NCBI GenBank assembly: GCA_965243835.1
Contig: OZ251578.1
Span: forward strand, 277,573 to 341,572
Direction: 5' to 3'
Source: Candidatus Spongiisociaceae bacterium
GTDB taxonomy: Bacteria > Actinomycetota > Acidimicrobiia > Spongiisociales > Spongiisociaceae
Length of the DNA: 64,000 nucleotides
Every line of letters starts with the position of its first letter. Position 1 is the first letter of the stretch. Positions 3,619 through 57,086 of this stretch are shown one piece after another. The position numbers and the translations under genes were made by a program. The notes beneath the pieces are model-generated. The model saw only the letters and a list, made by a program, of their open reading frames with translations. It ran no database searches and was not told the origin of the DNA.

Positions 3619-4860
3619 GTGCGACCAGAACTACGCCCGGTGACCAAGGAGCGAAGTAACCAGAACGGGTTTTCGCCGGACACGCAAAAGTGGCTGGCCG
3701 CGGCCCCGCGGGAGCGTCGCAAGCGATTGGGCCAATATATGACGCCCGCCCTGCTCCGGGACAGGCTCCTGGAACAGTGCGACCTTTTCGCCGGTATGCG
3801 GGTGCTGGATCCGGGGGCGGGGACCGGCGAATTCCTCAAATCGGTACTCGATCGCCAGCCGCAGGCGGAGGCGCATGGGTGGGATGTGGACCCGTCGGTT
3901 CTGTCGGTCGCGTGCGCCAACGCACCGGCGGCGCGCTTGGAGGAGCGCTCGGCGTTGGAGCCCTATCAGGGCGAGCCGTTTGACCTGGTGATCGGCAACC
4001 CCCCTTATTTTCAGTTCAACGCCCCCCGGGAAATCAGAACCTACTACGCCCGCGTGATTTCCGGCCGCGTAAATATTTTCTCCCTGTTTTTCCAAGCCGG
4101 TTTGGAGGCCCTCCGCCCCGGCGGGCAGTTGGCCTATGTAATACCCCCTTCTATGAACAACGGGGCCTACTTCGAGCGGTTGCGCGATTTTCTGATTGAG
4201 CATGCGGCGATCGAATTTTTGGAAATTCATCGCGACCAGGCGTTGTTCGACGGCGCCCAGACCCCGGTCCAGTTGCTCGTTCTCCGCAAGGGGGAGGCGG
4301 ACGCCGGCCGCCATGTGTTTATCAGGCGGAGCAGTCGCAACGGGTTTCGGCGCACCATTTTCTCGGAGCATCCGGCCGAGATGGAAGCTTCGTTTGCGGG
4401 TCGGAGCACCTTGTTCGATCTGGGGTATGAGGCCGTGACCGGTACCGTTGCCTGGAATCAACACAAGGCGGCCCTCCGCCGGGAGGAAGGGTCCGGGGTG
4501 GTGCCCTTGCTATGGGCGCACAACGTCCGGGACCAGGTTCGGTTGATGATGGACCACAAGCGGCCGCAGTTCATAACGAAGGATCGGCCCACCCTGTTCG
4601 GGCCCGCCATCGTGTCCAACCGCATCGTGGGGGCGGTCGGTTCCGCGGAGTTCAGGTGCGCGCTGGTGCCCGAAGGCATGGAGTTCGCAGCGGAGAATCA
4701 CATAAATGTAATTAGACGACATGGACAGTTTCCACCCAAGGCGACTTGGCGCGAGTTGCTGGATTCCCTGCAAGCCCCGCCGACGGCAACGCGGGTCGGC
4801 CTGCTCACCGGCAACACGCAGGTGTCGGCCACGGAACTGACACACCTTTTGCCTGTATGA
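3619..4860 (+). CDS. N6-adenine DNA methyltransferase (gamma-class; Eco57I/TaqI-like)
   Basis: GTG start; motif X GQYMTPALL, motif I VLDPGAGTGEF, motif IV VIGNPPYF. Confidence 0.8.
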   Translation: MRPELRPVTKERSNQNGFSPDTQKWLAAAPRERRKRLGQYMTPALLRDRLLEQCDLFAGMRVLDPGAGTGEFLKSVLDRQPQAEAHGWDVDPSVLSVACANAPAARLEERSALEPYQGEPFDLVIGNPPYFQFNAPREIRTYYARVISGRVNIFSLFFQAGLEALRPGGQLAYVIPPSMNNGAYFERLRDFLIEHAAIEFLEIHRDQALFDGAQTPVQLLVLRKGEADAGRHVFIRRSSRNGFRRTIFSEHPAEMEASFAGRSTLFDLGYEAVTGTVAWNQHKAALRREEGSGVVPLLWAHNVRDQVRLMMDHKRPQFITKDRPTLFGPAIVSNRIVGAVGSAEFRCALVPEGMEFAAENHINVIRRHGQFPPKATWRELLDSLQAPPTATRVGLLTGNTQVSATELTHLLPV

Positions 4861-4873: not shown

Positions 4874-5752
4874 TTATCGGTCGATCCACAGATGGAAGCA
4901 GGCCGTCCTTACCCAGTGTTTAGCCGCAACACGCCCTTCCTTGCCCTGGTATGAGTTCTTATAGTTCGGGTAGATACGAACGGTGCGGTTGGACGAGATC
5001 CCCCGCACCCTGGCCTGCGCTCTGGGTATCCGAGATCCGCGGTTGGCGCCGGCTTTTCGAAAAATATAGTCGACGATGATGACTTCGTCTGCTTCAAAAG
5101 GGTTGGTTACCTTGACCCATCCCTTGCGCCAGTCGGCGTGCAACACGGTAGGCGCCGGCCATTCGGATTCCGGCTGTCCCAGAAGAGGGACTACCGCGCT
5201 TTTCTGCGTTATCCCATGGGCTACCGCGCGGGCGTAGTGCGCTACACGGTCGGGAGCGGGTTTTTCAACCGTGAGACGCTCCCGGAAATAATCGTACAGC
5301 CGCTCCACCGTACGTTCCTGCGAAGCCCGAACCCCCGCGAAGTCGCCGGCCAGCGCCATGCGACGGCGTTCCTGCATGGGGGCCGCCATGATGGAGTGGA
5401 GTTCCGTTTCATCTTCCATCATCCAGGCCACGGTTGAAATGCCCAGGTTGGCGTCCGTGACCTTTCCCGTCTTGAGCTCGATTTCCCTGTCGGAGCCGAC
5501 GACGGCCAGGTCCGAGCCTTTGATGTTGAGGTCGCTGGTACGGAAATTCGCATCCACTCCGAACATTTCCGCCAGCGTCTGACAAGCCCGTCGGATCCAC
5601 AAGCCCATCTCCTCCGGGGTTTTCCCCTTGAACAGGCCGGGACGGCGCTGGTCGGGCAGACAGGCGAGCCTGGGAACCAGGCCTTGCACGCAGTAGACGG
5701 GCACGGTCATTGCCTGATTGATCAGCCGTTCGAATTCGTCGAAGTTCGGCAT
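4874..5752 (-). CDS. Hypothetical protein convergent with the methyltransferase; candidate Type II restriction endonuclease
   Basis: Convergent, 13 nt from the MTase stop; possible PD-(D/E)XK arrangement GSDLAVVGSDREIELKTGK; no other recognisable domain. Confidence 0.35.
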   Translation of the reverse strand: MPNFDEFERLINQAMTVPVYCVQGLVPRLACLPDQRRPGLFKGKTPEEMGLWIRRACQTLAEMFGVDANFRTSDLNIKGSDLAVVGSDREIELKTGKVTDANLGISTVAWMMEDETELHSIMAAPMQERRRMALAGDFAGVRASQERTVERLYDYFRERLTVEKPAPDRVAHYARAVAHGITQKSAVVPLLGQPESEWPAPTVLHADWRKGWVKVTNPFEADEVIIVDYIFRKAGANRGSRIPRAQARVRGISSNRTVRIYPNYKNSYQGKEGRVAAKHWVRTACFHLWIDR

Positions 5753-11506: not shown

Positions 11507-11530
11507 CCGCCCATCCCGCGTAACGCCCCG

Positions 11531-11600
11531 CATAGAAACGACCCGCCCCCGGAGGGACGGGCCGTTTTAACCATAGGCATGCCTATGGCGCAGTTCTGAC
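11531..11600. repeat. R1 bipartite palindromic repeat (hairpin aaacgacccgcccc..gggacgggccgttt plus perfect palindrome ccataggcatgcctatgg)
   Basis: Three copies in this intergenic region (R1-R3). Confidence 0.8.
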
Positions 11601-11727
11601 GAGAAAGTATAGACGCCCGAAGGAACCCGTCAAGCCCTTCCCGCGTCGTCGGCAGTCGCGGGTGGAGCGGCAACGTCTGTTGCGGGTTACGACAGCGATG
11701 GGACAAGTGCCGGGGGCAGGCCCCCGT

Positions 11728-11796
11728 CATAGAAATGACCCGCCCCCGAAGGGACGGGTCATTCTGCCATGAGCGTACCCATGGCTGTGATGCGAC
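11728..11796. repeat. R2 copy of the same bipartite palindromic repeat (more diverged)
   Basis: catagaaatgacccgcccccgaagggacgggtcatt...gccatgagcgtacccatggc. Confidence 0.7.
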
Positions 11797-11887
11797 ATAC
11801 AAGTATACATGACCGCGACAACCCCGTCAATTCGGTTTCTCCGCTATCGACGTAACGGTGGGCGACGCCTGCTGCCGCAGGACGGGG

Positions 11888-12015
11888 GATTCCGTTGAGG
11901 CGGTTGTTGCGGCGCTTCGCCTCTCCCCGCTGGCAGGAGCGCGCCCCTGCGTCGCCGCCTGCGGGACGGCTGTCCGGTTTCATCCGGGCGTACCGCCCCC
12001 TCCTCCCCGCCTGGG
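11888..12015 (+). pseudogene. Degenerate (~80% identical) duplicate of the last ~125 nt of the upstream membrane-protein gene (11380-11506)
   Basis: gttgcggcgcttcgcctctccccgctggcaggagc...ccggtttcatccgggcgtaccgccccctcctccccgcctgg against the original gttgcggcatttcgcctccccccgctggcgggagc...ccggtttcatctggctgtaccgccccctcctccccgcctga. Confidence 0.7.
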
Positions 12016-12089
12016 CCTCCGGTCCCGCATACGCCCGGCCCGGGTTTATCATGACGGCTACGGCATAACCGCTGGGGTCCGGTTCCCGA

Positions 12090-12159
12090 CATAGAAACGA
12101 CCCGCCCCCGGAGGGACGGGCCGTTTTAACCATAGGTATACCTATGGCGCAGTTCTGAC
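12090..12159. repeat. R3 copy of the bipartite palindromic repeat; its tail supplies the RBS of the NYN gene
   Basis: Same hairpin; the second palindrome ccataggtatacctatgg carries compensatory changes relative to R1. Confidence 0.8.
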
Positions 12160-12171
12160 AAAGGAGTATAG

Positions 12172-12834
12172 GTGTCTGAAAACCATCTGTCAAATCGGTC
12201 ACGCGTATTCGGCTATGTGGATGGCTACAACGTCTACTACGGATTGCTGAGCAAAGGCTGGAAAAGGTTCTACTGGCTTGATTTACGGGCTTTGTTCACC
12301 ACTCTCTTGCTTCCGGGCGATGAGCTGGTTGCTGTCAAGTATTTCACCGCTAGAGGGCGAGGCCCCCAAGACTCCAACCGTCGCCAAGCTATTTACTTAG
12401 GGGCTCTCTCCTCGTCAGGCGGAGTGGAGATAATCAGCGGCCGGTTCGCCAGGCGGACGCGTAAGCACTGTTCCTACTGCGGGAATTATCTTCAGTGCCT
12501 GAAGTGCGAACGCAGCGACAGGCGGAACCAGGAAAAAACGACCGATGTCGCTATCGGCGTTAATTTGGTTGCGGATGCGCACGAAGGGCTGTACGACAAG
12601 GCCTTTCTGATGACCGGCGACAGCGACCTCATACCGGCGGTCAAGCATGTGGTGGACAGGTTGGGTAAAAGGGTGGTCGTTACCCCGCCGCCCGGACGAA
12701 GATCTGATCACCTGAATGAGGTGGGCTCCGGGGTGGCGTACTTTTCCGTCGGGGCCTTTAGGCGATCCCAGTTGCCGGAAGTGGTGATGGGGAGCGGGGG
12801 GCGGGAGTATCGGCGACCCGCCGCGTGGAGATGA
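12172..12834 (+). CDS. NYN/LabA-like (PIN-fold) nuclease domain protein with central zinc ribbon
   Basis: GTG start with aaggag RBS; FGYVDGYNVYY and TDVAIGVNLVADAHEGLYDKAFLMTGDSDLIPAV (NYN); CSYCGNYLQCLKCE. Confidence 0.7.
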   Translation: MSENHLSNRSRVFGYVDGYNVYYGLLSKGWKRFYWLDLRALFTTLLLPGDELVAVKYFTARGRGPQDSNRRQAIYLGALSSSGGVEIISGRFARRTRKHCSYCGNYLQCLKCERSDRRNQEKTTDVAIGVNLVADAHEGLYDKAFLMTGDSDLIPAVKHVVDRLGKRVVVTPPPGRRSDHLNEVGSGVAYFSVGAFRRSQLPEVVMGSGGREYRRPAAWR

Positions 12835-12844
12835 CGACGCCGGG

Positions 12845-14611
12845 TTACATCCGGTCGGGAATTTCGATGCCCAGCAGGTCCAGCAACAGTTCCAGGGCGC
12901 GGCGGACGACGGCGACCAGGGTAAGCCAAGAGGCCCGCCGGTGCGGGTCGGGTTCGGTGAGGATGTGGCAGGATTCGTAGAAGGAACTGAACCCGGCGGC
13001 CAGTTGGTATGCGTATTCGGCCAGCTGGTTGGGTGCCCGCAACTCCTCCGCCCGTTCCAGGGCTTCCGGCAGGGCCAGCAGATGCAACCACAGGCGCCGT
13101 TCCGGGCCGGCGTCGGGGGCGATGACCGGGCCGGGGGACAGGTCGCGCTCCCCGGCTTTGGCGAGGATGGAGGCCATCCGCACCGCCGCCATCTGCAGGT
13201 AGGGGCCGGTTTTGCCTTCCAGGGAGGTGAACCGTTTCGGTTGGAACACGTAGTTGGAGGTCCGGTTGTTGATCAGGTCCCCGAATTTGAGGGCGGCCAA
13301 GCCCACCTGCCGGGAGATGCGGTCCCGTTCCGCGTCCGGGTAGTCGGCGGCCAGGTCCGATTCGTCCAGTCGCCGGCGGGCTTCTTCGGCCACCAGCCGG
13401 ATCAGATCCTGCAAGGCCAGCACCTCCCCGGCCCGGGTTTTGTAGGGTTTGCCGTCTTTGCCGTTCATCGTCCCGAACGGGATGTGCTCCATCCGGGCGC
13501 GGGGGGCGATGCCGGTGCGCCGGGCGGCCCGGAACACCTGGGTGAAATGGTAGGACTGGCGGGCGTCCACCACGTACAGGATCAGGTCGGCCTCCAGCTC
13601 CTCGACCCGCATCCCAATGGCGGCCAGGTCGGTGGTGGAGTACAGGTAAGCCCCGCGCGAGGTGCGGACGACCAGCGGCGCGATTTCGGTTTTGTCGTCT
13701 TCTTCGGCTACTTCTACGACCACCGCCCCCTCCGACTCGCGGGCGACCCCGGCGGCGAGGGCGCCTTCCACCAGGGGGGCGAGGCGGTCCCGCACATCGC
13801 TTTCCCCATGCCACAAATCGAATTCCACTCCCAGGTCGGCGAAGTCCCGCTTTTGGGAGCGGCGGGAAACGGTCACGAAATGGTTCCACAGGGCTAGGTA
13901 GCCGGGGCGTCCCGCCTGCAGTTCGCCGGTGGCCCGGCGGGCGGCATCGGCGGTTTCCTCGTCGCGCTCGGCTTGGGCGGCGATCTGCGGATACCATTCC
14001 TGCAGGTCGGCCAGCGCGACCGGGGGTTCCTCCGGGTAGGGGCCGGAGCGGTCGGGGTCGAAGTAGGGGAGGTCGGGGAGGCGCCGTTGGGCGGCCACGA
14101 TCAGCATTCCCATCTGCAGGCCCCAGTCCCCGAAGTGGGCGTCCCCCCACACCCGGTGGCCGCGGAACCGGAGCAGGCGCTTCAGGCTGTCGCCGATGAT
14201 GGTGGAGCGCAAATGTCCGACATGCATGGCTTTGGCCACATTGGGCCCGGCGTAATCCACCACGATGTTGAGGGGATTTTCCACCGGCGGCGCCCCCGCC
14301 CGTTGCGGGTCGGCGGCCACCCGGTTCGCATATTCGGCCAAGGCGCGGTCGGTGAGGGAGAGGTTGATGAACCCGGGCCCCGCTACCGAGGCCTCGGCCA
14401 GCCGCGGGTCATCGGCGAGGCGGGCCGCCGCCTGTTCCGCCACCTCCCGGGGATTGCGCCCCCCGGATTTGGCGGCGGGCAGGGCCCCGTTGCATTGGAA
14501 CTGCCCCAAGTCCGGCCGGTTGGACGCCACTACCAACCCGTACCCGGGGTCGAACCCCAAGTCGGCGAAGGCGTTCCCCAGCAGGGCGGAGAGGTCGGAC
14601 AGCACGCTCAT
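12845..14611 (-). CDS. argS: Arginine--tRNA ligase
   Basis: 588 aa; class I aaRS HIGH-like motif (PNVAKAMHVGHLRST) and DALR anticodon-binding C-terminus. Confidence 0.9.
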   Translation of the reverse strand: MSVLSDLSALLGNAFADLGFDPGYGLVVASNRPDLGQFQCNGALPAAKSGGRNPREVAEQAAARLADDPRLAEASVAGPGFINLSLTDRALAEYANRVAADPQRAGAPPVENPLNIVVDYAGPNVAKAMHVGHLRSTIIGDSLKRLLRFRGHRVWGDAHFGDWGLQMGMLIVAAQRRLPDLPYFDPDRSGPYPEEPPVALADLQEWYPQIAAQAERDEETADAARRATGELQAGRPGYLALWNHFVTVSRRSQKRDFADLGVEFDLWHGESDVRDRLAPLVEGALAAGVARESEGAVVVEVAEEDDKTEIAPLVVRTSRGAYLYSTTDLAAIGMRVEELEADLILYVVDARQSYHFTQVFRAARRTGIAPRARMEHIPFGTMNGKDGKPYKTRAGEVLALQDLIRLVAEEARRRLDESDLAADYPDAERDRISRQVGLAALKFGDLINNRTSNYVFQPKRFTSLEGKTGPYLQMAAVRMASILAKAGERDLSPGPVIAPDAGPERRLWLHLLALPEALERAEELRAPNQLAEYAYQLAAGFSSFYESCHILTEPDPHRRASWLTLVAVVRRALELLLDLLGIEIPDRM

Positions 14612-14694
14612 GGCCTCCCAGCCTAAACCACCCGCCCGCCTACCGGGACCGCTATACTTTTAACCCTTGGTAACCGCCCAACAGGAACAGGCAG

Positions 14695-16686
14695 ATGCCG
14701 CTACGTGAAACCCTGGACAACATCCGCAACGGACCCACCCCCGGCAACGAGGAGTCGGCCAAGATGTGGATTCTGGTTCCCATCCTTCAGGATTTGGGTT
14801 GGCAACCGTTTGATATCCAGTGGGAATATCAGGTGGGCCGGAGCAAAGGAAGGGTGGATGCCGCCCTAACTGGGCCAAAGGGAGTTACGGCTTTCATCGA
14901 AGCCAAAGCCCCCGGCAACCGTTTGGACGATCACGTCGAGCAGGTTTTGGGATACGCGTTCCAGGAGGGGGCGAACATCTGCGCGCTGACCACCGGCCTG
15001 GAGTGGTGGTTGTACCTGCCCGCCGAGACGGACTACAACTTCGACGAACGCCGTTTCGCCGAGTTGCGTCTCAAGGACGACCCGGTGGAACAACTGGCCA
15101 CCGATTTCGTCGCCTTCCTAGGCAAGGAAACATTATTAGACGGAGAAGCCGAGAAAAAGGCCAAGCAAGTCCTAAAAGCCCGCCGCGAGGCCGAACACTT
15201 GGACAAGGAGGTCCCCGGCATCTGGCGCGAAATGCTGGTAACCCCCGACGAAGAGCTGATAGAGCTGGTAAGCAAACGCGTCTACGAAAAAACTAACCTC
15301 CGCCCCACCTCTCAACAGGTAAACTTCGCCCTCACAGGCCGCCTTTCCCCACCCTCTACCAGCCCACGACGACCCGTTGACCCCCCAAATAAAGAGATTA
15401 AACCACCAACCAGCACGCCAGGACCTACGGCGATTCGATTGTGGGGAGAGACACAATCAGTTAAAAGCAATGCGGATATTCTTAGATGCGTTATTGATGG
15501 TCTTCTCGAACGAGGTGAGACTGAGTTTGAGAATATACCTGGAATAGGCGGTATCACTCGTACTCCTTATCAGCCCAAAATGAAGGATTATTATCAAGTG
15601 GGCTCCACCGGCATTTACTTTGTTACAGGAAAGGGCAGAGCCGTTATTGAAGATACTTATCGGCTATTAGAACACTTTGATTATACCCGTTCAGATTTAG
15701 AAATTATATATGGCAAGATGCCTCCACCAAATGGTATGAAATTGTGGGGAAAATACTATCAAGTTAAATCTTGGATTAGCATTTTGGATATTGTAGTAGA
15801 TTCTCTCTATGAACGCCATGGACACAATTTTGAACCTGGACTCGAGCTTCGTAATCAAAGAGGACCTTATATTTCTCGGGAATCTTCAGATATAGAAAGG
15901 CCCCGTCAGGTAGGCGCAAAGGATCTCTATTTGGATCGTAACATCGGACATTTGGAGGTTAAAGAACGCGCCAAAGAATTGCTTGAGGCTTTTGGATACA
16001 AAGCTTCTGATCTAGAAATTATAGAGAAAGAAAAAGCAAGCGGCTTTGAGTTCTTGGGTAAATACCATGAGGTGAAGCACAATTATCAAGTGCTGGTTGG
16101 TGTCGCCGAAGTTCTCTTCGAACAGCATGGTAACGATTTTGAAGGGGCCCTTGATTTGAAAGGTATATTACGTAAACCTGAGAGTGTCTCTCCTAAAAAT
16201 TATCGCGAAGTGGGCTCTTCGGGTATTTTTGTGAGATTGCCGGACGCTAAATTTTTTTCTAGGTCTTATCAATTGGTAGAATACTTTGGGTATAAAGCCA
16301 GTGCTTTAAGAATTGATACTACAACAGGTTCAGTAAATTATTCTACATTAGATATATCCAGAAGCAAGAGATATGTAAAGCCGGTTCGTATTAGACTGTT
16401 TGACGAGTACCATAAAGTCAAACTATGGAAAGAGATAATAATGCGGCTTGCGGATGTGCTTTATAGACGGCATCGCTCTGATTTTGATCGTGTGTTGGGT
16501 TTAGGGACTGAAAAGAACCCTTATGCTTCTCGCCTTTCTGTAGTGTTGGAGTCAGCGTATGAAGTTGGTAATTCGGGTATTTATATCGAAACAGGGCTAA
16601 GTTCCGATAATGTCAAAAGGCGCTCCAAGAAATTGTTAGAAGAATTCGGATACAAACCCGAAGAGTTAGAAATACTGTTTGATTAG
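14695..16686 (+). CDS. HsdR_N-like (PD-(D/E)XK) nuclease domain protein with Pro/Thr linker and four tandem copies of a novel ~85-aa module
   Basis: N-terminus EYQVGRSKGRVDAALTG...AFIEAKAPG...ALTTGLEWWLY matches the Type I R-subunit N-terminal fold. Four repeats carry (W/F)G.Y..VK......LY.RH..dFe then Y.VGsSGIY....LLE.FGY...L.I. The repeat region is about 40% GC. Confidence 0.75.
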   Translation: MPLRETLDNIRNGPTPGNEESAKMWILVPILQDLGWQPFDIQWEYQVGRSKGRVDAALTGPKGVTAFIEAKAPGNRLDDHVEQVLGYAFQEGANICALTTGLEWWLYLPAETDYNFDERRFAELRLKDDPVEQLATDFVAFLGKETLLDGEAEKKAKQVLKARREAEHLDKEVPGIWREMLVTPDEELIELVSKRVYEKTNLRPTSQQVNFALTGRLSPPSTSPRRPVDPPNKEIKPPTSTPGPTAIRLWGETQSVKSNADILRCVIDGLLERGETEFENIPGIGGITRTPYQPKMKDYYQVGSTGIYFVTGKGRAVIEDTYRLLEHFDYTRSDLEIIYGKMPPPNGMKLWGKYYQVKSWISILDIVVDSLYERHGHNFEPGLELRNQRGPYISRESSDIERPRQVGAKDLYLDRNIGHLEVKERAKELLEAFGYKASDLEIIEKEKASGFEFLGKYHEVKHNYQVLVGVAEVLFEQHGNDFEGALDLKGILRKPESVSPKNYREVGSSGIFVRLPDAKFFSRSYQLVEYFGYKASALRIDTTTGSVNYSTLDISRSKRYVKPVRIRLFDEYHKVKLWKEIIMRLADVLYRRHRSDFDRVLGLGTEKNPYASRLSVVLESAYEVGNSGIYIETGLSSDNVKRRSKKLLEEFGYKPEELEILFD

Positions 16687-16701
16687 AAAGGAAGGAACAG
16701 T

Positions 16702-18960
16702 ATGTCTGGCTTGATTGACGTTAAATTGATAGACGGTACGGCGCGTACTATACGTGAGCTGTTTACCGGGCGTAAGTACGGGATAGAGTACTACCAGCGT
16801 GAATACACTTGGACGGAGTCCAATGTGGTGGAGTTGCTTGATGACCTAACCACTCGTTTTCTGGATGAATATACGGAAGGCGATGAGCGTCATAAGGTCG
16901 CCTCTTACCGTTATTATTTCCTGGGACCAATAGTTACCAACCTATCCGAAGAAGGGATACGTTACTTGGTGGATGGACAGCAACGCCTTACTACCCTAAC
17001 CTTATTGTTGATTTGTCTAGATCATATGTCTAAAGATGAGGATGGGGTGGAAAGTTTGGAACAGTTAGTTTATTCGCAAAAGTTCGGTTCACGCACATTT
17101 AACATAAACGTAGACGAGCGTGAAGAAGTGATGGCTACTATTCTGGATGGTTCTTCCTCTTTTGATACGGAGGACAAGTCGATATCGGTTCGCAATATAT
17201 GGGAGAGATATCAGAATGTAGTGGATCATTTTCCTGAAGAACTCAAAGGAGAATCATTAGTGTTTTTTATTGATTGGTTACTGGAACGGGTGGTACTAGT
17301 CGAGATAGGCACCACCGACCAGGATATGGCATTAGAGGTTTTTGAAACAATGAACGACCGGGGTTTGCGTTTATCCAATACCGATATGTTGAAAGCTTTT
17401 CTACTGAGCAAACTTGACGACCGTCAGCGAATTGAAAAGACGAACGAGCTATGGCGTAATCGTATAACGGAGCTGGCAGATTTAGATAAGAATGCTGACT
17501 CGGATTTTCTGAAGCATTGGTTACGCGGGCATTACGCCGATTCAATCCGGGAACAGAAACGGGGTGCTACTCCACGCGACTTCGATATAATTGGTACCGC
17601 GTATCATAAATGGGTGCGCGATAATTGTGAAAGAATAGGGTTGTATAATTCTAGTGATTTCATGGGTTTTGCCTATCAAGACTTTGACCGAATGAGCAAT
17701 AGATACAAGCAACTTCTGCAGGCTAGCTGGGAAATGACCCCTGGTTTGGAGCACTTATTTTACAACGCCACAGTGGGAATAACACTCCAATACTTGCCTA
17801 TTATAGCGGCTTTAACTCCCGATGATGATGAAGAAATTTTTCGATCAAAAACTCGTCTTATATCTGCTTATATTGACTTGTGGATGGCGAGGCTTATGGT
17901 TAACTATCGTAACTATGGATATTCAACTATTTTACATAGAATGTTTCGATTGAGTAAAGAACTCCGTAATCGAGAATTGCATGAAGTTCAAGAAATATTG
18001 GCGAATTGGGTAGCTGGCTTACCAGATTCCTTTGAGGGCGTTATGCATTTTCGGCTTCACGGTCAGAATCGTTGGCGCATTAAATACTTGTTGTCACGGA
18101 TGACAGCTTGGGTTGAGGCGAATTGCGACGGTAGCGGTCAGTTTGTTGATTATATGGATTCACAACGCCAAAGCCCTTATGAGGTGGAACATATTTGGGC
18201 TAATAAATACGCTCGACATATAGATGAGTTTGACAGCCCGGATGACTTCGATCGTAGTAGAAATCGTTTTGGTGCTTTAGTGCTTTTACCGAAGAGTTTC
18301 AACGCCAGCTATGGTGATAAGCCTTATTCAGAAAAGGTAGAACATTATTACGGTCAGAATTTATTGGCACGGTCGCTTCACCCTAGAACCTACGAGAATA
18401 ATCCTTCTTTTAAAGGATTTATAGCGAAGACAGGGTTGCCTTTTAAACCTTATCCCGATTCTTTTACAAAGGATAATATAGAAGAGAGACAGGATTTGTA
18501 TCGTCAGATTTGTGAGCAGATTTGGGATCCGGACACCTTGGGTTTGGGCGGAGGCGCATCACAATCAATCCCTAAAAGTACTAACCCTAAAATGACTAAA
18601 AGAAATATGTCTACATATGACATTTTGGGATTGGAGTTGTTTGGTGAATATTATCAGGCGGAACATAAATACCCAAAATACCAAGTACTACAAATTGTTG
18701 CTGATGAAGTCTACAAGAGGCACCGTGATGATTTTCATCGGGCGTTGGAGATCGGCGGCTTTGTAAGTGAGCCTTCTCCTCAAAACCCTGATGAATATTA
18801 TAAGATAGGGTCATCGGGAGTATATGTTCTTGCCGCCTCGGGGCTTTTTGATAAGTCGTATAAACTATTGGACCTTTTTGGTTACCAACGGGGGGCTCTT
18901 AGAATTGACACTTCGGAAGGGCCCATCAACCCTTCAACTTATGAGGTGGATGATGAGTAG
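16702..18960 (+). CDS. DUF262/DUF1524 (GmrSD/BrxU-like) Type IV restriction-type protein with one C-terminal copy of the shared module
   Basis: DUF262 hallmark YLVDGQQRLTTLTLLL; DUF1524 His-Me motif YEVEHIWANKYARH; C-terminal LGLELFGEYYQAEHKYPKYQVLQIVADEVYKRHRDDF...YYKIGSSGVYVL...LLDLFGYQRGALRI; RBS gaaaggaagg 7 nt upstream. Confidence 0.8.
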   Translation: MSGLIDVKLIDGTARTIRELFTGRKYGIEYYQREYTWTESNVVELLDDLTTRFLDEYTEGDERHKVASYRYYFLGPIVTNLSEEGIRYLVDGQQRLTTLTLLLICLDHMSKDEDGVESLEQLVYSQKFGSRTFNINVDEREEVMATILDGSSSFDTEDKSISVRNIWERYQNVVDHFPEELKGESLVFFIDWLLERVVLVEIGTTDQDMALEVFETMNDRGLRLSNTDMLKAFLLSKLDDRQRIEKTNELWRNRITELADLDKNADSDFLKHWLRGHYADSIREQKRGATPRDFDIIGTAYHKWVRDNCERIGLYNSSDFMGFAYQDFDRMSNRYKQLLQASWEMTPGLEHLFYNATVGITLQYLPIIAALTPDDDEEIFRSKTRLISAYIDLWMARLMVNYRNYGYSTILHRMFRLSKELRNRELHEVQEILANWVAGLPDSFEGVMHFRLHGQNRWRIKYLLSRMTAWVEANCDGSGQFVDYMDSQRQSPYEVEHIWANKYARHIDEFDSPDDFDRSRNRFGALVLLPKSFNASYGDKPYSEKVEHYYGQNLLARSLHPRTYENNPSFKGFIAKTGLPFKPYPDSFTKDNIEERQDLYRQICEQIWDPDTLGLGGGASQSIPKSTNPKMTKRNMSTYDILGLELFGEYYQAEHKYPKYQVLQIVADEVYKRHRDDFHRALEIGGFVSEPSPQNPDEYYKIGSSGVYVLAASGLFDKSYKLLDLFGYQRGALRIDTSEGPINPSTYEVDDE

Positions 18961-20626
18961 TTTTTTGGTTAAGGGGCCGGCTCAACTGAGCGGGCACTTT
19001 CAGCCGGTGGGGAACAAGAATGCGGCCCTGCCGATTATCGCCGCCTGTTTGCTGGCGGAGGGGCCGGTTACTTTGCGCAACGTGCCGATGATCGGGGATG
19101 TGGAGTCGCTACTGGCCATCCTGGAGGAAATGGGGGCCGCGGTGGACCGCCGGGGAGGGGGAACCATCCGCATCGACGCCCGCAATGTGGACTCGCCTGC
19201 GGTTTCGGCGGAGCTGGCGGGGGCGATTCGGGCCTCCATCCTGCTCGCCGGACCACTCTTGGCCCGGTTCGGGCAGGTGACAATTCCGCCTCCCGGCGGG
19301 GACGTCATCGGGCGTCGTCGCATCGACACGCATGTGCGGGGGCTGACCGCCATCGGCGCCCGCTACAAATACGAGGGCGGGCATTCTTTCACCGCCGACT
19401 CCCTCACCGGCGCCGACGTGTTCTTGGACGAGCCGTCGGTCACCGCCACCGAAAACCTGATAATGGCCGCTTCCAAAGCATGGGGCACCACCGTCATCCA
19501 GAACGCCGCCTGCGAACCGCACATCCAGGACCTGTGTCATTTCCTGAACTCGCTGGGGGCGCGCATCACCGGCATCGGCAGCAACATTCTCACCATCGAG
19601 GGGGCGGATTCGCTGAGCGGCGGCGAGCACGACATCGTTCCCGACCATATTGAGATCGGAAGCATGATCGTGTTGGCCGCCGTAACCGGTTCCGAAATAA
19701 CCATCGGCGGGATACGCTCCGGTGAGATCAGGCCCATCAACCTGGCTTGGCAACGGCTGGGCATCGATTACCACCTGCAAGCGGACGGCTCCGCCCTGGT
19801 CTGCGCCCATCAGAACCTCACCGTGTCCCCCGACTTGGGCGGCGCGGTGCCCAAAATAGAGGACGGGCCGTGGCCGTCCTTCCCGGCCGACCTGACCAGC
19901 ATCGCGGTGGTGGCCGCCACCCAGGCCACCGGTTCCATAATGATCCACGAGAAAATGTTCGAGTCGCGAATGTTCTTCGTGGACCGGCTGATCGGGATGG
20001 GGGCCCGCATCGTGCTGTGCGACCCGCACCGGGTGATGGTGCTCGGCCCCACCCCCTTGCATGCCAGCCCGGTGGCCAGCCCCGACATCCGGGCCGGGAT
20101 GGCCCTGCTCATCGCCGCCCTGGCCGCCGAAGGCCAAAGTCGCATCGATAACGTGGAACAGATCGAACGGGGCTACGAAGCCCTCGACAGCCGACTCACC
20201 GCCCTAGGAGCCCAAATCGAACGCCTCGACGGGTTGGAAAGCACCAGATCGGCGGTAGCCAAAAAACCGAAAACCAGGAAACGTTCCCAAACCCCTCCTC
20301 CTGCGGGTCTGCAAATACTAGGCCGCGAATTGCAACCGACGTCTTGGGCGGATGCAGTCCGGGAGACTGTTCGAGAGATGCTCGCCCGCCACCCCGATAT
20401 TTACCAGGAGACTATGTTGGGCCTCCCACGGTGGATTGATAGTAGTGGCGATAGCCGTCTCGCCTATCCGCTAGAATCCAGGCCGCCACACAGATACGGC
20501 ACAGTTATCGGCGGAGTAAGAGTATTTGATAATTACAACGCAATAGGAGCGAAAGAGGCTGTTGACATTGTTTTAAACGGATTTGGCTACCAAGCCGACG
20601 CCGTTCGCGAATGGACTTTGACATAG
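18950..20626 (+). CDS. murA: UDP-N-acetylglucosamine 1-carboxyvinyltransferase (MurA) homolog with ~130-aa C-terminal extension carrying the shared module
   Basis: [40 protein letters not shown] and a full two-lobe MurA/EPSPS core. Asp replaces the catalytic Cys ([15 protein letters not shown]). Tail ...[30 protein letters not shown]...[12 protein letters not shown]...[17 protein letters not shown]. The ATG overlaps the upstream gene by 11 nt. Confidence 0.85.
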
Positions 20627-20638
20627 GGGCCCCGCTGG

Positions 20639-20700
20639 GGTACAGTTTTTGTGAATGCTCCCCGCCGTCTGGGGCCAACCTGGACTGGCGGGGCTTATTT
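20639..20700. repeat. X1 repeat: hairpin gctccccgcc...ggcggggc with T-rich tail, directly after the murA stop
   Basis: A second copy (X2) lies at 20897-20960; could act as the murA terminator. Confidence 0.55.
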
Positions 20701-20721
20701 ATGGATAGGTGATATCCGATG

Positions 20722-20815
20722 CCTGCTGTAGGGAAACGATCACCGACCGGTTGACGCAGAACATTCGAATGCAACGGTTCAATCGCCAGCCGCACCCCCG
20801 CCGCCGTTGCCTCCT
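20722..20815 (-). pseudogene. Degenerate (~85% identical) duplicate of an internal segment (22575-22670) of the sugar-phosphate isomerase gene
   Basis: cctgctgtagggaaacgatcaccgaccggttgacgcagaacat... against cttgccgcagggaaacgatcaccgaccggtcggcgcagaacat...; the minus-strand translation retains RLAIEPLH. Confidence 0.7.
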
Positions 20816-20896
20816 CCTCCGCCTAAGTGCTCACCCTGTGGCGGAGCCGCGCGAAGCCGTTCGTCAATAGACGATTTGACAGGGGGTCCCGGTGGT

Positions 20897-20960
20897 GTAT
20901 AGTTTCTGTTAATGCTCCCCGCTGTCCGGGTCCTTGGGGCCTGAACTGGCGGGGATTTAG
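20897..20960. repeat. X2 repeat (second copy of the X1 hairpin element)
   Basis: gtatagtttctgttaatgctccccgctgtccgggtccttggggcctgaactggcggggattt. Confidence 0.55.
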
Positions 20961-21137
20961 TTATAGGGGCTTTGCGTTGAGGGGGAGTGAGGGTGAGGGT
21001 AAGTTCCGGTTGGGTTTGCCGGTGTAGAGGAGCACTTGGGTTCTGTCGTTACGGAATCCGAAGGCTCCGCCACCCCCTCCACCCCCACTATCTCCACCTC
21101 CCCCGAGTGTTCCACCCAGACGACGCGGCGTGTTGGT

Positions 21138-21950
21138 TTACAGGTTGGGAGGGACGGTAGTCATTTTATTCAAGGTTTCCTTGTCTAAATCGATAATGTT
21201 ATCCGCTAGTTTAGAAAGCTCACGGGACACACTATTCCGGTTGGGAGTAGCAACCGATACTCGAGTTCCCATATTTTGGGCGACACGTACAGCCTCCGTA
21301 AAGTCCCCATCTCCCGCAATGAGCACCGCCTTATCAATCTTTCCTTGTTGCGCCAACATCACCAAATCCAACACTAGCAAGGTATCCACTCCTTTCTGTT
21401 TGTGTTCTGGCTCGAAAGCCCCATTTTTTTCTAACTCGTTTATGAATTGAATTGGATCCTGCCCTAAATCGGACACCATTTTATTGAGGGTAGCTCTTAG
21501 ATCGCGTTCGTTTTTAGGTCTTATTTCAACTATACGTCCCAGTCGGAGTTCAAAGTCAGGGATCTGCACTAATTCAGACAGGATTTTTCGTTGAAATTTT
21601 GCTGATTTGTGGTAAGCGGGATAAGCACCATCATACCAATAGGTTTTATGAAGGTGTCCTTCGATGCCTCTGCACCAATCTGCAATCTCTTTGGTATTCA
21701 TTTGTATTCGCGTTTTGGGTATTGAATTACCGGAGAAATTTTTGCCTTCCGCTCGTAAATATCCAACATCTATAAAAACGGCATAACGAGAAGATGGTTC
21801 GTTTTGTTCGGCTGTCGTTGTGTTTTCTAGGAGTTTGAAAAAATACGTCTTGGTTTCGCCGATTTTTGCTCGTCTTTCGAGCTTGAGTGTTTCTTCTGGG
21901 TTGTCGGCGATGTCATAGTTTCCTGTATTTATTTTATTGTTTTCTTTCAT
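21138..21950 (-). CDS. NYN/LabA-like (PIN-fold) nuclease domain protein
   Basis: RYAVFIDVGYL...GVDTLLVLDLVMLAQQGKIDKAVLIAGDGDFTEAVRVAQNMGTRVSVA. Start chosen at MKENNK because of the gggagaag RBS; the ORF is open up to 22148. AT-rich. Confidence 0.65.
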   Translation of the reverse strand: MKENNKINTGNYDIADNPEETLKLERRAKIGETKTYFFKLLENTTTAEQNEPSSRYAVFIDVGYLRAEGKNFSGNSIPKTRIQMNTKEIADWCRGIEGHLHKTYWYDGAYPAYHKSAKFQRKILSELVQIPDFELRLGRIVEIRPKNERDLRATLNKMVSDLGQDPIQFINELEKNGAFEPEHKQKGVDTLLVLDLVMLAQQGKIDKAVLIAGDGDFTEAVRVAQNMGTRVSVATPNRNSVSRELSKLADNIIDLDKETLNKMTTVPPNL

Positions 21951-22231
21951 TTTTCTTTCTTCTCCCGTATCGGGTGGATTCCGCTTGTGTGCGGGTATCC
22001 CTTGTAATTTACCTAAAGGGGGGTAAGTTTCGGCTTTGTAAAATATTTCTAGGTGTTTGACAAAAAATCCCATAGGAAGCCCCAACGATGTCCCATAGGG
22101 GACCGTTGCTACCCCCTCTAGGGAAATCCAGTTTAGGGCAACGCCCAATATTTGTCAAACGGGCATCTACCTGGGCTTTTGCCAGGGGCAGGAGCGGGGT
22201 TCGTTGGACGGCGGCCCGTTCAGGGGGACGG

Positions 22232-41917: not shown

Positions 41918-42001
41918 GCCGGGATGCCCGAGCGGCCAAAGGGAGCAGACTGTAAATCTGCCGGCTAAGCCTACGGAGGTTCGAATCCTTCTCCCGGCAC
42001 C
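41918..42001 (+). tRNA. tRNA-Tyr (GTA)
   Basis: Acceptor gccggga/tcccggc, anticodon loop actgtaaatc, long variable arm, TPsiC ggttcgaatcc. Confidence 0.8.
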
Positions 42002-42123: not shown

Positions 42124-42144
42124 CGACGGCCTTGGGCCGCAGGC

Positions 42145-54107: not shown

Positions 54108-57086
54108 ATGATGGCCCAGGCGGGAGCGAGGACGGCGGAGATGGCCGGCAGGGTTATCTCCGGGCAAGCCGAGGACGACATCAGAGCCGCCCTGCGCAAC
54201 CTGTTAGAAGAGATGGGCGCCGCACGCGCCGCGCAACTTTCGTTCGCCGGCGGCGATGAAGCGGATATGGTGATTGAGGAGTGGTCCGTCGTCATCGAGA
54301 CCAAAAGCAAGGGCATTAGCGACTTCTCGGCTCCGGGTAGCGGAAGCCGCGTCGGGGAAACCGCTTTTGATCAACTGGGCCGTTATCATGGTCATTTGGA
54401 TGGCCTTCCCGAATACACGCAACAAAAGGGTAGTTGGCTAGGTGTTATTACCAACGGCAGACGGTGGTCGACGCGGATCTGGTCGGATCAGGGCGCGGTG
54501 GAGCTGGCAAGCGATCGGGAGTTTCTGCCGGGAAACGAAGCCGCCTTGATAGAATGGTTGTCTAACTTGTTGATAGAAAGGCGAAAGTATCAACCTTTCC
54601 CATCGGATCCGGGTGAAGTATTTAATCCTTTTGCCAACGAACTTTTGATGATGACCCAGACGGACTGGCCTAATTCTCAAAAGAAATCCTATGCTACGCA
54701 AAAGGATTTGTGGCTGGAAATACTTGAAGGATCAGGTATGGGGGTAGTTACCGACGAGGAAGCTTTGTTTCGCCGTCATTGTTTTCTAGTATCGCTAGCG
54801 CGAGCGGTGGAAGCGTCTATGGAGAAGGACCCTCCCCCTGTTCTTGATTCAAATAGGATGGTGGGATTTTCATCTTGGGTGGCAGAAACGAATGATGGTA
54901 GAGAGTGGTTGGATAAAATGTACAAACAAGTGCTTTCTTATGATTGGCAGAATACAGGTCGTGACGCTTTACGTGAAGTGTATGAAACAACCGTAGACAA
55001 AAGAAACCGGCACGCGTTTGGAGAATACTATACCCCTGGTTGGGTGGCGGCTATGGTGGTAGAGCGGGTATTGGATGATGACTGGCTCAGCCGCTGTTTA
55101 ACGGCCGGTGAGAGCCCTCAGCCCGGCTACGGTGTTCTGGATCCCGCTTGTGGTTCCGGCACCTTTTTGTATCATGCGGCCAAAAGAATATACTCTTATT
55201 TGAACACCGCACCGGACGCATCCCGGCTACTGGATGTACAGAAGGCGGATATTGTGGCTAATCTGGTTGTGGGAATAGATATTCATCCGGTTGCAGTGGA
55301 GTTGGCGAAGATTACGTTGCTCACGGCCTTTCCGCCCGGGGTTTCACCTCGCAGGGGAAAAGACGCCCTGAGGGTTTTCCAAGGGGATGCGTTGCTGGCT
55401 GATTGGCAGACGCATGCCCTGTTTCGTAATCCCGAGTTGGAAGGCGAATTATATGAGTTTGAATCACCTCAAGGAAGAGAATATTTTATACCTCGCTTTT
55501 TTGCCCTCCGGCCTGAATTTGGGCAACAGATTAAGACGATGTTGGATGCTGTTATTCGCGGCGATCATCTTCCCCGGCATTTGTTGGAAGGTGACGAAAG
55601 TTTGGATCAGTTGTTATTGGAAAGTTATGATACTCTAAAAACTCTCGTACAAGTAGAGCAAAATGGGGTTTGGGCGTGGCGTATTTTCAATTCCGTATCT
55701 CCGCTACTGCTCTCCTTAACCAAGGTAGATAGAATTGTGGCTAACCCACCGTGGGTGGTAATGTCTTCTATACAAGATCGCCGGAAAAGGGTTTGCGAAA
55801 GCCTGCTTAAAGATCATCAACTTTGGCCTGGAAAGAATTTGGCCGCTAAAACCAATCTGGCGGCTCTTTTCGTATTCCGTACGGCAGTCGAATATTTACA
55901 CTATAAACGAAAAGGAAATTTCGCCTGCGGTTGGGTACTTCCCTGGGGATCTTTGCAAGGTGAAAACTGGGGGTTTTTGCGAGAGAAGATTAGTCCCGAA
56001 ACACTAGATTTGGGCGATGTCAAACAGCCTCCTTTTACTGGTGATGTGTCCTGTGTTTGGTTTGAAGGATCTGCTATAACCGATGATAAATTAAATAAGA
56101 TAGCTAATAACGTTTCCGGCCAAATTGTGTCGCGCGATGCCGACGATTGGAGTTTAGCCCAAACCAGACTCAGAATTTCAACAGCTGAAATACCCCGCCA
56201 AGAAACTTCCGGCTACTACGACGGGAAAAAATCATTGTTTAGGCAAGGTGCCTCCCTTGTACCTCATACCCTGGTCAAGATACAAGAATCTCGGACGTCG
56301 CCATCCGGAAACGACCGTTTGTTAATTACAACGGCCGCCAGCGTAAAAGGTGTCTGGGCCAATATCTCTCCTCATAAAGACCAAGAGATTCCAAAAAGAT
56401 GGTCCAAGGAAACCGCGGGGGGAGAACACCTGCTTCCCTTCGTATTAAGGATGCCCTTTGATAGATTCGTCATCCCTGTTAACTCTACGGGGAAGAATCT
56501 AATGTCGGAATCAGCATCATTGCAAGAAGAATATTGGTGGAACGCCAACAAGGATTATTCCGAAAATGCGGGGGGCGGACAGAGCACTCCTAGAACTTTA
56601 TATTCCCAAATAGATCATCATCAAAAATTGTCTTCTCAATTATCAAGGAAAGATGGTTGGGTAGTAACCTACAATAAATCTGGTTCTAGATTAAGGTCCG
56701 CCCGTACTAATAAACGCCGTTTAATACTTATGGATCAGCTTTATTGGTATACGTGCGACTCCGAGGAGGAGTCTGGATACCTGGTTAGTTTGATGAACTC
56801 TGATTACCTACAGGTACATTTTAGATACGCAAAAACCTCCTGGCGTGATTTTCATACCAACCCCTGGAAAAAGGTGCCGATACCAAAGTACGACCCTGGC
56901 GACGCTACTCACCGAAAACTGGCGAATCTGTGTTTGGATGCCGAAAGTATCGCCATGGGATTTCTCCGGAGTAGCACCGCCCGGGGCTTGGGGCAGCCGG
57001 CAACTTCCAAATTGATAAGAGCCGAGATCGTCGAAAACGGCCTGATGGCGGCAATAGACAACCAGGTCGAAAAAATAATTCCCTAA
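54108..57086 (+). CDS. Type IIG/IIL-like fused restriction endonuclease - N6-adenine DNA methyltransferase (MmeI-like architecture)
   Basis: N-terminal HsdR_N/Mrr-like PD-(D/E)XK (GGDEADMVIEEWSVVIETKSKG...GVITNGRRWSTRIW). MTase motif X EYYTPGWV, motif I VLDPACGSGTFLY, motif IV IVANPPWV. Long C-terminal putative specificity region. About 45% GC after a GC-rich first 300 nt. Confidence 0.7.
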   Translation: MMAQAGARTAEMAGRVISGQAEDDIRAALRNLLEEMGAARAAQLSFAGGDEADMVIEEWSVVIETKSKGISDFSAPGSGSRVGETAFDQLGRYHGHLDGLPEYTQQKGSWLGVITNGRRWSTRIWSDQGAVELASDREFLPGNEAALIEWLSNLLIERRKYQPFPSDPGEVFNPFANELLMMTQTDWPNSQKKSYATQKDLWLEILEGSGMGVVTDEEALFRRHCFLVSLARAVEASMEKDPPPVLDSNRMVGFSSWVAETNDGREWLDKMYKQVLSYDWQNTGRDALREVYETTVDKRNRHAFGEYYTPGWVAAMVVERVLDDDWLSRCLTAGESPQPGYGVLDPACGSGTFLYHAAKRIYSYLNTAPDASRLLDVQKADIVANLVVGIDIHPVAVELAKITLLTAFPPGVSPRRGKDALRVFQGDALLADWQTHALFRNPELEGELYEFESPQGREYFIPRFFALRPEFGQQIKTMLDAVIRGDHLPRHLLEGDESLDQLLLESYDTLKTLVQVEQNGVWAWRIFNSVSPLLLSLTKVDRIVANPPWVVMSSIQDRRKRVCESLLKDHQLWPGKNLAAKTNLAALFVFRTAVEYLHYKRKGNFACGWVLPWGSLQGENWGFLREKISPETLDLGDVKQPPFTGDVSCVWFEGSAITDDKLNKIANNVSGQIVSRDADDWSLAQTRLRISTAEIPRQETSGYYDGKKSLFRQGASLVPHTLVKIQESRTSPSGNDRLLITTAASVKGVWANISPHKDQEIPKRWSKETAGGEHLLPFVLRMPFDRFVIPVNSTGKNLMSESASLQEEYWWNANKDYSENAGGGQSTPRTLYSQIDHHQKLSSQLSRKDGWVVTYNKSGSRLRSARTNKRRLILMDQLYWYTCDSEEESGYLVSLMNSDYLQVHFRYAKTSWRDFHTNPWKKVPIPKYDPGDATHRKLANLCLDAESIAMGFLRSSTARGLGQPATSKLIRAEIVENGLMAAIDNQVEKIIP

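Follow-up and report, generated by a model that had tools for sequence, protein, structure and literature searches.

In the 64-kb stretch of DNA analysed here (the window, W), the interval between argS and murA is probably a hotspot of defence genes in which recombination at the level of domains shuffles modules resembling the C-terminal domain of SeqA (SeqA-C). This slot, about 14.6-20.7 kb of the window, encodes a predicted nuclease with four such modules (gene 14695), a GmrSD-type nuclease with one module (gene 16702) and a MurA protein with a divergent one at its end. We showed recombinational module shuffling for gene 14695 and murA. The result is carried by steps in base composition inside open reading frames (ORFs), coincident steps in synonymous divergence (dS), at least six architectures on one nuclease head, and a 781-bp fusion deletion. 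The window was compared with related metagenomic or genomic loci (L-numbers) and homologous proteins (P-numbers). Its closest relatives are metagenomic contigs that share the synteny from argS to murA. The nearest named genome is OZ241841.1, the closed 2.77-Mb long-read chromosome of a Candidatus Spongiisociaceae metagenome-assembled genome (MAG) of the Acidimicrobiia. An exact-sequence look-up of the gene 14695 product returned no record. For the strain comparison we used eight related metagenomic loci with the same argS-murA slot, with L001 as the main reference for identity and dS and L005 as the second; segments were grouped by pairwise dS.

The window is about 66-70% GC overall and has three low-GC patches; at host level, the GC content of third codon positions (GC3) is 0.86-0.91. 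From the sequence it had been predicted that GC content changes within genes, from GC-rich N-terminal parts to AT-rich module regions. Using a likelihood-ratio test for change points at third codon positions, with 500 permutations per gene, we confirmed this discontinuity in gene 14695 and murA and, more weakly, in the Type IIG gene at 54108. In gene 14695 (14695-16686), GC3 falls from 0.72 to 0.34 at codon 223 (nt ~15364), with a log-likelihood ratio (LLR) of 43.3 against a permutation maximum of 8.9. The murA gene (18950-20626) falls from 0.84 to 0.54 at nt ~20129 (LLR 25.5 against 8.4), and the Type IIG gene (54108-57086) from 0.78 to 0.47 at nt ~54357 (16.1 against 9.3). The controls argS (LLR 3.9), FAD oxidoreductase (2.4) and gene 16702 (4.3, uniformly low with GC3 0.41) showed no break. 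Set against the window's 29 host-like ORFs, which have a median LLR of 3.8 and a 95th percentile of 16.8, gene 14695 lies far outside, murA has the highest value and the Type IIG gene is just at the upper edge. As predicted, the murA core is host-like, the module region together with gene 16702 is AT-rich (34-49% GC), and the murA tail is intermediate (48-59% GC). It turned out, contrary to the prediction, that the 5' part of gene 14695 is not at host GC: its first ~650 nt are 55-62% GC, which is intermediate and below the host level. The composition steps are sharp (within ~100 nt) and placed at domain junctions. In all compared loci, GC3 is 0.68-0.76 in the head of gene 14695 (N_A), 0.76-0.82 in the murA core and 0.51-0.60 in the MurA module M6. 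It is 0.25-0.44 in every copy of modules M1-M4, 0.40-0.50 in M5, 0.36-0.42 in GmrSD, and 0.40-0.45 in N_B, the head of the paralogous gene B of relatives.

Gene 14695 is assembled from N_A, a low-complexity linker and modules M1-M4 (Table 1). The nuclease motif D55, E69, K71 (D...ExK) of the head is invariant in 37 of 37 family sequences. N_A of the window matches PF04313 weakly (E 0.009, below the cutoff), and its homologues carry PF04313 or PF13588. Among the eight loci, N_A is 72-95% identical at the amino acid level. Across the linker, identity to L001 drops from 0.95 to 0.87-0.81. A module hidden Markov model (HMM), described below, matches M1 and M2 at 65 and 104 bits and M3 and M4 at 74 and 107 bits; M3 and M4 are 84% and 76% identical in amino acids to the gene B modules of L001. 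Two matched blocks join the window to L001: window 12750-16024 corresponds to L001 8054-11330, and window 16029-20702 corresponds to L001 12112-16756. The 781 bp between them in L001 (11331-12111) are absent from the window. They comprise the stop codon of gene A, a spacer and about 257 codons of the head of gene B. The junction has a short AGAG-type microhomology and preserves the reading frame. The 663-aa product of the window corresponds to separate tandem genes of 444 aa and 460 aa in relatives. By this alignment the window gene is shown to be an in-frame deletion fusion of two tandem paralogues. L070 carries an independent and different fusion of A and B, in which the head of A stands on the linker and modules of B. 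The paralogous head N_B is AT-rich and 93-96% identical in amino acids between strains; the domain as such therefore does not entail a GC-rich head. The rule that GC-rich heads are resident HsdR_N domains was rejected because of AT-rich N_B and the differing head of the Type IIG protein.

Comparison of the strains revealed six module sets behind the one head N_A: M1-M2, M1-M2-M3-M4, M3-M4, M1'-M4-like, M1-M2x and M2 alone. The window has N_A-M1-M2-M3-M4, GmrSD-M5 and MurA-M6. In L001 and L005 the order is N_A-M1-M2, N_B-M3-M4, GmrSD-M5 and MurA-M6, and in L067 and L068 it is N_A-M1'-M4-like, N_B-M3-M4, GmrSD(-M5) and (MurA-M6). L070 has N_A-M3-M4 and GmrSD without M5. L071 combines N_A-M2 with GmrSD and a MurA without tail, L003 combines N_A-M1-M2x with GmrSD and a MurA without tail, and L006 has N_A-M1-M2x and a MurA without tail.

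The divergence of the parts follows the same borders. Between the window and L001, the GC-rich parts are 93-99% identical and the AT-rich parts 62-91%. The GC-rich parts diverge in a host-like manner, with dS of about 0.11-0.22: argS has 95% nucleotide identity and dS 0.114, N_A has dS 0.22 with a nonsynonymous to synonymous ratio (dN/dS) of 0.11, and the murA core has 95-99% nucleotide identity, dS 0.116 and dN/dS 0.06. The AT-rich parts have 3-10x more synonymous divergence, and it is uneven: dS is 0.44-0.46 in M1 and M2 (dN/dS 0.15-0.18), 1.09 in M4 and 0.32 in M5. The divergence steps between the window and L001 coincide with the GC3 steps, at nt ~15300-15450 and nt ~20220. Along the GmrSD core, dS to relatives varies unevenly from 0.4 to saturated; relative to L001, the N-terminal part is saturated and the C-terminal part has 0.41. 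The GmrSD_C domain has dS 0.41 to L001 and 2.1 to L005. The pattern of high and low dS thus differs between strain pairs, which indicates a recombination mosaic. In all unsaturated segments of the window-L001 and window-L005 comparisons dN/dS is 0.05-0.35, and in the 30-codon linker it is 0.43-0.95. We showed in this way that the parts with estimable dS are under purifying selection. Positive selection alone is insufficient to explain the module divergence, since the excess is synonymous too; it was rejected as the cause on the strength of these dN/dS values and the raised dS.

Grouping by pairwise dS joins L001 with L067 and L005 with L068 in argS. In N_A it joins L001 with L005 and L067 with L068, and in N_B it is star-like. 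Since the segment groupings conflict with argS, the whole slot, head included, swaps alleles, and N_A alleles have been exchanged between strains. The original prediction was that foreign modules are shuffled onto resident N-terminal domains. Shuffling itself holds for gene 14695 and murA, as follows from the six module sets, the variable MurA tail, the dS steps and the conflicting groupings. N_A, however, is not simply resident, given an intermediate GC3, a dS of about 2x that of the host genes and alleles that depart from the argS grouping. The proposed separate histories of N- and C-terminal parts are borne out as far as the pairwise dS of segments goes, which conflicts with argS for N_A and is star-like for N_B.

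We propose that the shuffled unit would be a SeqA-C-like module of ~100 aa, single or in tandem, placed behind a PD-(D/E)xK head, a GmrSD nuclease or MurA. Modules may be joined or exchanged through unequal or illegitimate recombination between tandem paralogues, through in-frame deletions that take out a stop codon together with the head of the next gene, and through allelic replacement that draws on a divergent allele pool. Joins and exchanges would always fall in or beside low-complexity linkers. The modules, gene B and GmrSD would form an AT-rich compartment (GC3 0.25-0.45), and the N_A head and murA a GC-richer one. Because the joined parts come from different compartments, each join would leave a composition step inside an ORF.

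MurA shows the same type of variation. The murA gene product scores 462.8 bits against TIGR01072 (cutoff 392.7). Its tail has 61-75% nucleotide identity to L001, against 97% for the core, with dS 1.5 and dN/dS 0.19. Between strains with 98-99% identical cores, the tails are 63-69% identical, and their dN/dS is 0.19-0.35. The window tail gives a full-length match to the module HMM (13.9 bits, E 3e-6 as a single planned test), and the L001 tail passes at E<=1e-4. The tail is present in W, L001, L005 and L068, where it co-occurs with M5 and gene B modules (four complete-murA loci), and absent from L003, L006 and L071. Its linker is of the same basic, Pro-rich kind as the linkers of genes A and B. 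The simplest origin of the tail would be a stop-codon-removing deletion, as in W. The murA gene, which starts at 18950, shares 11 nt with the end of the GmrSD gene; this overlap suggests that it is transcribed together with the defence genes. In L001, L003, L005, L068 and L071, with or without tail, murA adjoins AP_endonuc_2/DUF993; L006 has other genes downstream of murA. It is conceivable, although we regard it as improbable, that the essential enzyme MurA, encoded in an operon-like row with the nucleases, has been drawn into the defence module system with its reader tail under purifying selection, and that the AT-rich parts are a stable domain-scale compartment kept up within a genome of 68% GC. 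If this is true, the link between MurA and a reader would couple peptidoglycan synthesis to the sensing of methylated DNA; MurA might, for example, serve as a guard or a decoy, or the coupling might be of the addiction type.

The module of ~100 aa is present in four copies in gene 14695 (M1-M4), once on GmrSD (M5), and in divergent form on MurA (M6). A search of Pfam and NCBIfam assigned no family to the window modules. We therefore relied on an HMM of 241 modules, MurA tails excluded, which matches M1-M5 at 56-107 bits. A profile of 16 module sequences searched against the PDB found SeqA chains only (E 5e-4, profile positions 5-90 of 100). A single-sequence AlphaFold model of the full 663-aa protein had a predicted local confidence (pLDDT) of 33.6 and was replaced by a module model. 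The AlphaFold2 (AF2) model of M4, built from the 16-sequence alignment, has a pLDDT of 96.1. Using Foldseek against the PDB, we found that its top five matches are all SeqA-C, with probability 0.99-1.00, template modelling (TM) scores of 0.66-0.70 and a root mean square deviation of 2.1-2.6 A over ~90 residues, at a sequence identity of 11-13%. In the HMM alignment the module motifs G-x-K-x-P-Y and V-G-S-S-G-I-Y-V stand opposite GRTRVYF and TPYWVITNTN of SeqA, a correspondence at the level of regions only. Four other family members score 26-40 bits, above the Pfam whole-sequence cutoff for SeqA of 25.5 bits. By model and profile, the module appears to be a divergent SeqA C-terminal-like domain, a distant relative that is no member by Pfam's criterion. 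The C-terminal DNA-binding domain of SeqA is PF03925, with structures 1LRR, 1IU3, 3FMT and 3SK7. The SeqA C-terminal fold reads hemimethylated G(m6A)TC, m6A being N6-methyladenine. For this reason, the proteins of gene A and GmrSD-M5 may be, by analogy, Type IV-like modification-dependent restriction enzymes whose modules would read methylated DNA.

A module profile search of 1.84 billion representatives returned 689 cluster representatives that carry the module, C-terminally in most matches. Twenty of the 689 were scanned with Pfam; in them the module stands behind HSDR_N, Mrr_cat, GmrSD_N+HNH, RmuC, AAA_16 and DUF7226+DpnI_C. One cluster of this 20-representative sample has the MurA-module fusion. 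In loci L010-L066 the family occurs almost exclusively in MAGs named as sponge symbionts, which belong to the Acidimicrobiia, Longimicrobiales/Gemmatimonadota, Acidobacteriota, a gammaproteobacterium and Rhodothermales. This distribution suggests sharing within the sponge microbiome. In other Acidimicrobiia MAGs (L014, L024, L026, L042 and L046) there are tandem arrays of 2-4 head-plus-module paralogues with GC below that of the flanks. The first gene of the arrays in L042 and L046 switches from a GC-rich head to an AT-richer module.

Gene 16702 encodes GmrSD_N (DUF262; E 8e-32, 111.3 bits against a cutoff of 33.2) and GmrSD_C (DUF1524; E 2e-9, 37.8 bits against a cutoff of 23), followed by M5. 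The GmrSD proteins of L003, L070 and L071, of 611-618 aa, have no M5. Among the GmrSD homologues P0313-P0360, a RAMA domain (PF18755) is often located exactly where the window protein has M5 (in P0313, at residues 620-721). From these alignments, two different predicted m6A readers appear to alternate on one nuclease scaffold. There are no methyltransferase genes among the gene calls between argS and murA. About 10 kb upstream of the reader genes, a 60%-GC patch contains an adenine methyltransferase gene of the Eco57I/N6_Mtase type (3619-4860) and, on the minus strand at 4874-5752, an ORF of 292 aa without annotation. This methyltransferase may be relevant to self/non-self methylation.

Chimeric metagenome assembly or the amino-acid composition of the domains is hardly conceivable as the source of the steps. 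The related loci do derive from metagenome assemblies, but the same steps are found in at least eight independent assemblies from different samples, including the closed chromosome OZ241841.1, and an assembly artefact is therefore rejected. The ORFs are all intact, with dN/dS <=0.35. Since the discontinuity sits at third codon positions, amino-acid usage does not explain it either; amino-acid composition was ruled out both by this signal and by the GC-rich coding of the same domain in other hosts (GC3 0.6-0.8). Insertion of whole genes as an island, followed by partial amelioration of the edges without any domain swapping, is a much stronger candidate, to which we give a little less than an even chance. 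The variety of architectures and the occurrence of the tail in only some strains exclude it for gene 14695 and murA; it is most relevant to the Type IIG gene, a fusion of nuclease and methyltransferase. The protein encoded by this gene matches N6_Mtase (39.6 bits against a cutoff of 20.4), remains below the cutoffs for MmeI_Mtase (23.7 against 27) and Eco57I (20 against 25.3), and has a weak TaqI_C match. A D...ExK motif, 'DMVIEEWSVVIETKS', is visible by reading, and the Pfam search found no HSDR_N match in this protein. The GC-richer 5' end and the AT-rich remainder that had been predicted are there, but GC3 declines as a gradient over ~450 nt and not as a step: 0.80 in codons 1-50, 0.60-0.64 in codons 51-150 and ~0.45 afterwards. 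Such a gradient agrees with whole-gene insertion, as does the slightly higher GC3 in the first 50-90 codons of the AT-rich gene B and GmrSD. The homologues, at 93%, 85%, 82% and ~50% identity, are full length and all have a homologous PD-ExK part, so that the N-terminal nuclease part belongs to the family. The 50%-identical homologue in L009 has no GC-rich 5' end. Relative to the syntenic L008, dS stays close to that of host genes before and after the GC boundary; it is only in the C-terminal third (codons ~600-992) that it rises to 0.25-0.34. Against insertion as one piece speaks the comparison with P0038 and P0039, where the first 150 aa are 50-80% identical and the central methyltransferase 90-96%, which hints at a separate history of this segment. 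The 5' GC enrichment is thus real but does not fit a foreign remainder on a conserved resident head, as had been proposed: the head is integral to the homologues and more variable than the centre relative to P0038 and P0039, and the step relative to L008 is at codon ~600.

The hotspot reading itself has to be weighed against a number of results. A search for an AT-rich donor was unsuccessful: the 57 GTDB species loci that carry the family are all in GC-rich genomes (median flank GC 0.57-0.72), and among them the nearest relatives of head and modules outside the clade are only 30-59% identical. Scans of IMG/VR with GmrSD-M5 and the family alignment gave no viral matches; in JGI metagenomes, gene B had no match and the family search turned up 7 distant loci. 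Polarised third-position changes number 29 from AT to GC and 33 from GC to AT in M1-M2, and 28 and 29, respectively, in N_B. A recent import would predict drift to host GC, unless alleles are continually re-imported. The excess of dS in M1 and M2 is roughly constant (2.4-4x in two strain pairs), and a locally faster synonymous clock could account for it. As for function, the window modules have no match to Pfam SeqA (PF03925) even at E<=10, and DNA binding and methyl-dependence of the module would follow from likeness of fold and profile to SeqA.

The substitutions imply an equilibrium GC3 of 0.30-0.40 for the AT-rich parts, with no drift to host GC. M1 has reached synonymous saturation between W and L003/L006, but every lineage keeps a GC3 of ~0.3. 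This indicates that the AT-rich parts are at their own compositional equilibrium, without detectable amelioration. The equilibrium substitutions and the constant low GC3 despite saturation rule out one recent import still undergoing amelioration. Two possibilities are left: AT-rich alleles keep flowing in from an unsampled pool, or the AT-rich parts escape in situ from a GC-raising force. In the latter case no foreign DNA would be involved: the modules, gene B and GmrSD would be long-term residents at an AT-biased mutational equilibrium, which escape GC-biased gene conversion or codon-usage selection while N_A and murA still feel it, and recombination would only rearrange local paralogues. We consider this unlikely, though far from negligible. 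Equilibrium at saturated sites is what it predicts; fixation from GC to AT per GC site is ~3.6-5x higher in the AT-rich parts than in argS, and the AT-to-GC rate per AT site is of the same order (0.6-1.1x argS). The allele pool is apparently limited to this clade, and the searches made found no AT-rich donor, phage or plasmid source. However, sharp steps at domain junctions are not expected from it, and N_B is conserved yet AT-rich, so that hypervariability alone does not explain the escape. Moreover, in other GC-rich hosts the modules of most family members are GC-rich. Most family members in the 57 GTDB loci have uniform GC3, with a head-module difference of ~0-0.1, and only 3 of the 57 have a strong step: L010 (the chromosome of L003, from this clade) and the tandem-array loci L042 and L046. 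The step is thus a product of history and not a requirement of the domain, and the domain is not AT-rich by nature. Relatives of GmrSD are spread over many phyla; homologues of the core at 50-66% identity come from MAGs of Acidimicrobiia, Bacteroidetes and Gammaproteobacteria, and a 65%-identical GmrSD-RAMA homologue with GC3 0.84 (L073, 7001-9202) lies within an integrase/transposase island. These relatives favour a foreign origin. We conclude that recombination of modules in a defence hotspot is the preferred reading, and that the AT-rich compartment is likely, but unproven, to be ultimately foreign. The predicted foreign nature of the module segments thus cannot be taken as established, as no AT-rich donor and no amelioration were seen.

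Table 1. Features of the argS-murA slot, its surroundings and the Type IIG gene in the window.
Feature	Position	Strand	Remarks
argS (arginyl-tRNA synthetase)	12845..14611	-	left host flank; GC3 0.86; Pfam context in relatives
N_A, codons 1-215 of gene 14695	14695..15339	+	PD-(D/E)xK (HSDR_N-like) nuclease head and helical region; GC3 0.72
Linker rich in Pro/Ser/Thr/Lys, codons 216-245	15340..15429	+	holds the break at nt ~15364
Modules M1 (15430-15732) and M2 (15733-16041)	15430..16041	+	predicted SeqA-C-like reader modules; GC3 0.30-0.32
Deletion junction	16024..16032	+	781-bp in-frame loss fusing gene A (N_A-M1-M2) to the module part of paralogue B
Modules M3 (16042-16383) and M4 (16384-16683)	16042..16683	+	orthologous to gene B modules of relatives; GC3 0.35-0.38
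GmrSD core (GmrSD_N and GmrSD_C)	16702..18615	+	AT-rich throughout; GC3 0.41
Module M5	18616..18957	+	C-terminus of GmrSD; module HMM 56 bits
murA core (UDP-GlcNAc 1-carboxyvinyltransferase)	18950..20221	+	host-like; GC3 0.82
MurA tail: basic Pro-rich linker (20222-20302) and divergent module M6 (20303-20623)	20222..20623	+	GC3 ~0.5
Second variable slot, downstream of murA	20626..22230	.	repeats and AT-rich NYN-domain gene
Type IIG-like nuclease-methyltransferase fusion	54108..57086	+	5' ~450 nt GC-richer; remainder GC3 ~0.45

The second variable slot has two direct repeats of ~75 nt (20626-20696 and 20883-20957), which are 82-89% identical, as well as an NYN-domain gene at 21138-22148 (minus strand). 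L001 lacks an equivalent of the block spanning ~20970 to 22230, and in other strains a PIN gene or small ORFs occupy this slot. Within 14.6-20.7 kb we found no integrase, tRNA or flanking attachment (att) repeat, every called gene being otherwise assigned, and the repeats in 14000-21500 do not bracket the AT-rich block. Another NYN-domain gene (12172-12834, GC ~0.60) lies beside the 3' end of argS. Short C-terminal fragments of argS (DALR_1) are located nearby in relatives (L003 5663-5872; L071 394-603 and 1523-1735), and repeated segments at 11527-12178 of the window match L001 7392-8031. The fragments and repeats on this side resemble traces left by repeated integration next to argS. The Type IIG gene is followed downstream by an RmuC-family gene (57751-58953) and a gene for a PLD/NgoFVII-like nuclease (59088-59729), with GC3 0.66-0.70. 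They may be a second defence islet; in P0212, RmuC is fused to the same SeqA-like module. Elsewhere in the window, at 42001-43000, the GC skew reaches 0.38 over 1 kb and overlaps a 396-aa ORF (42298-43488).

The slot shows, at base-pair resolution, how uncultured sponge symbionts diversify their defence proteins: modules come and go, are duplicated, and are joined across the borders of genes. Composition-based island callers would set boundaries inside ORFs here and overlook the chimeric genes. The analysis also defines a SeqA-like reader module without a Pfam model, which points to candidate methyl-adenine-dependent restriction enzymes, and it flags a fusion of MurA with a reader that has no obvious rationale. 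The unameliorated AT-rich segments bear on the debate about the maintenance of GC content, in which GC-biased gene conversion or selection is set against gene flux.

Type IV enzymes that join a reader to a nuclease include DpnI-like winged-helix fusions, SRA-HNH, MspJI and GmrSD with RAMA-type readers. Like them, the window nucleases (the D55/E69/K71 head and GmrSD_N+C) are linked to a small fold predicted to resemble a methyl reader, and the same reader module occurs on proteins with Mrr_cat, HNH, RmuC and DpnI_C. Unlike them, the reader is a divergent SeqA-C-like domain below the Pfam SeqA thresholds, forms tandem arrays of 1-4 copies and is found also on MurA. Fusions of SeqA and RAMA in the context of restriction-modification (R-M) have been noted by Iyer et al. 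2016 (PMC4738411). The module shares the C-terminal fold of SeqA from E. coli and Vibrio, with the TM scores and identity given above, but the window modules have no N-terminal oligomerisation domain, their role would be in defence and not in replication control, and the host is actinobacterial. The exchange of target-recognition domains (TRDs), known from half-swaps of Type I HsdS and from Type IIG/MmeI enzymes, is similar in that conserved catalytic parts and exchanged recognition parts form mosaics with discordant histories; the C-terminal third of the Type IIG protein, the part most diverged from L008, resembles the Type IIG/MmeI case. It differs in that the units of the window are autonomous modules that vary in number, that genes are fused by removal of stop codons, and that a stable 40-point difference in GC3 separates two halves of one ORF. 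With AT-rich genomic islands the slot shares defence genes between conserved housekeeping genes and presence/absence polymorphism among relatives; unlike in classical islands, its boundaries lie inside ORFs and amelioration is not detectable. Thus, reader-nuclease Type IV enzymes, the shuffling of R-M recognition domains and AT-rich islands are known themes that are varied here, and what is unusual is a SeqA-like module family without its own model in tandem arrays, the MurA-reader fusion, and unameliorated compartments within ORFs.

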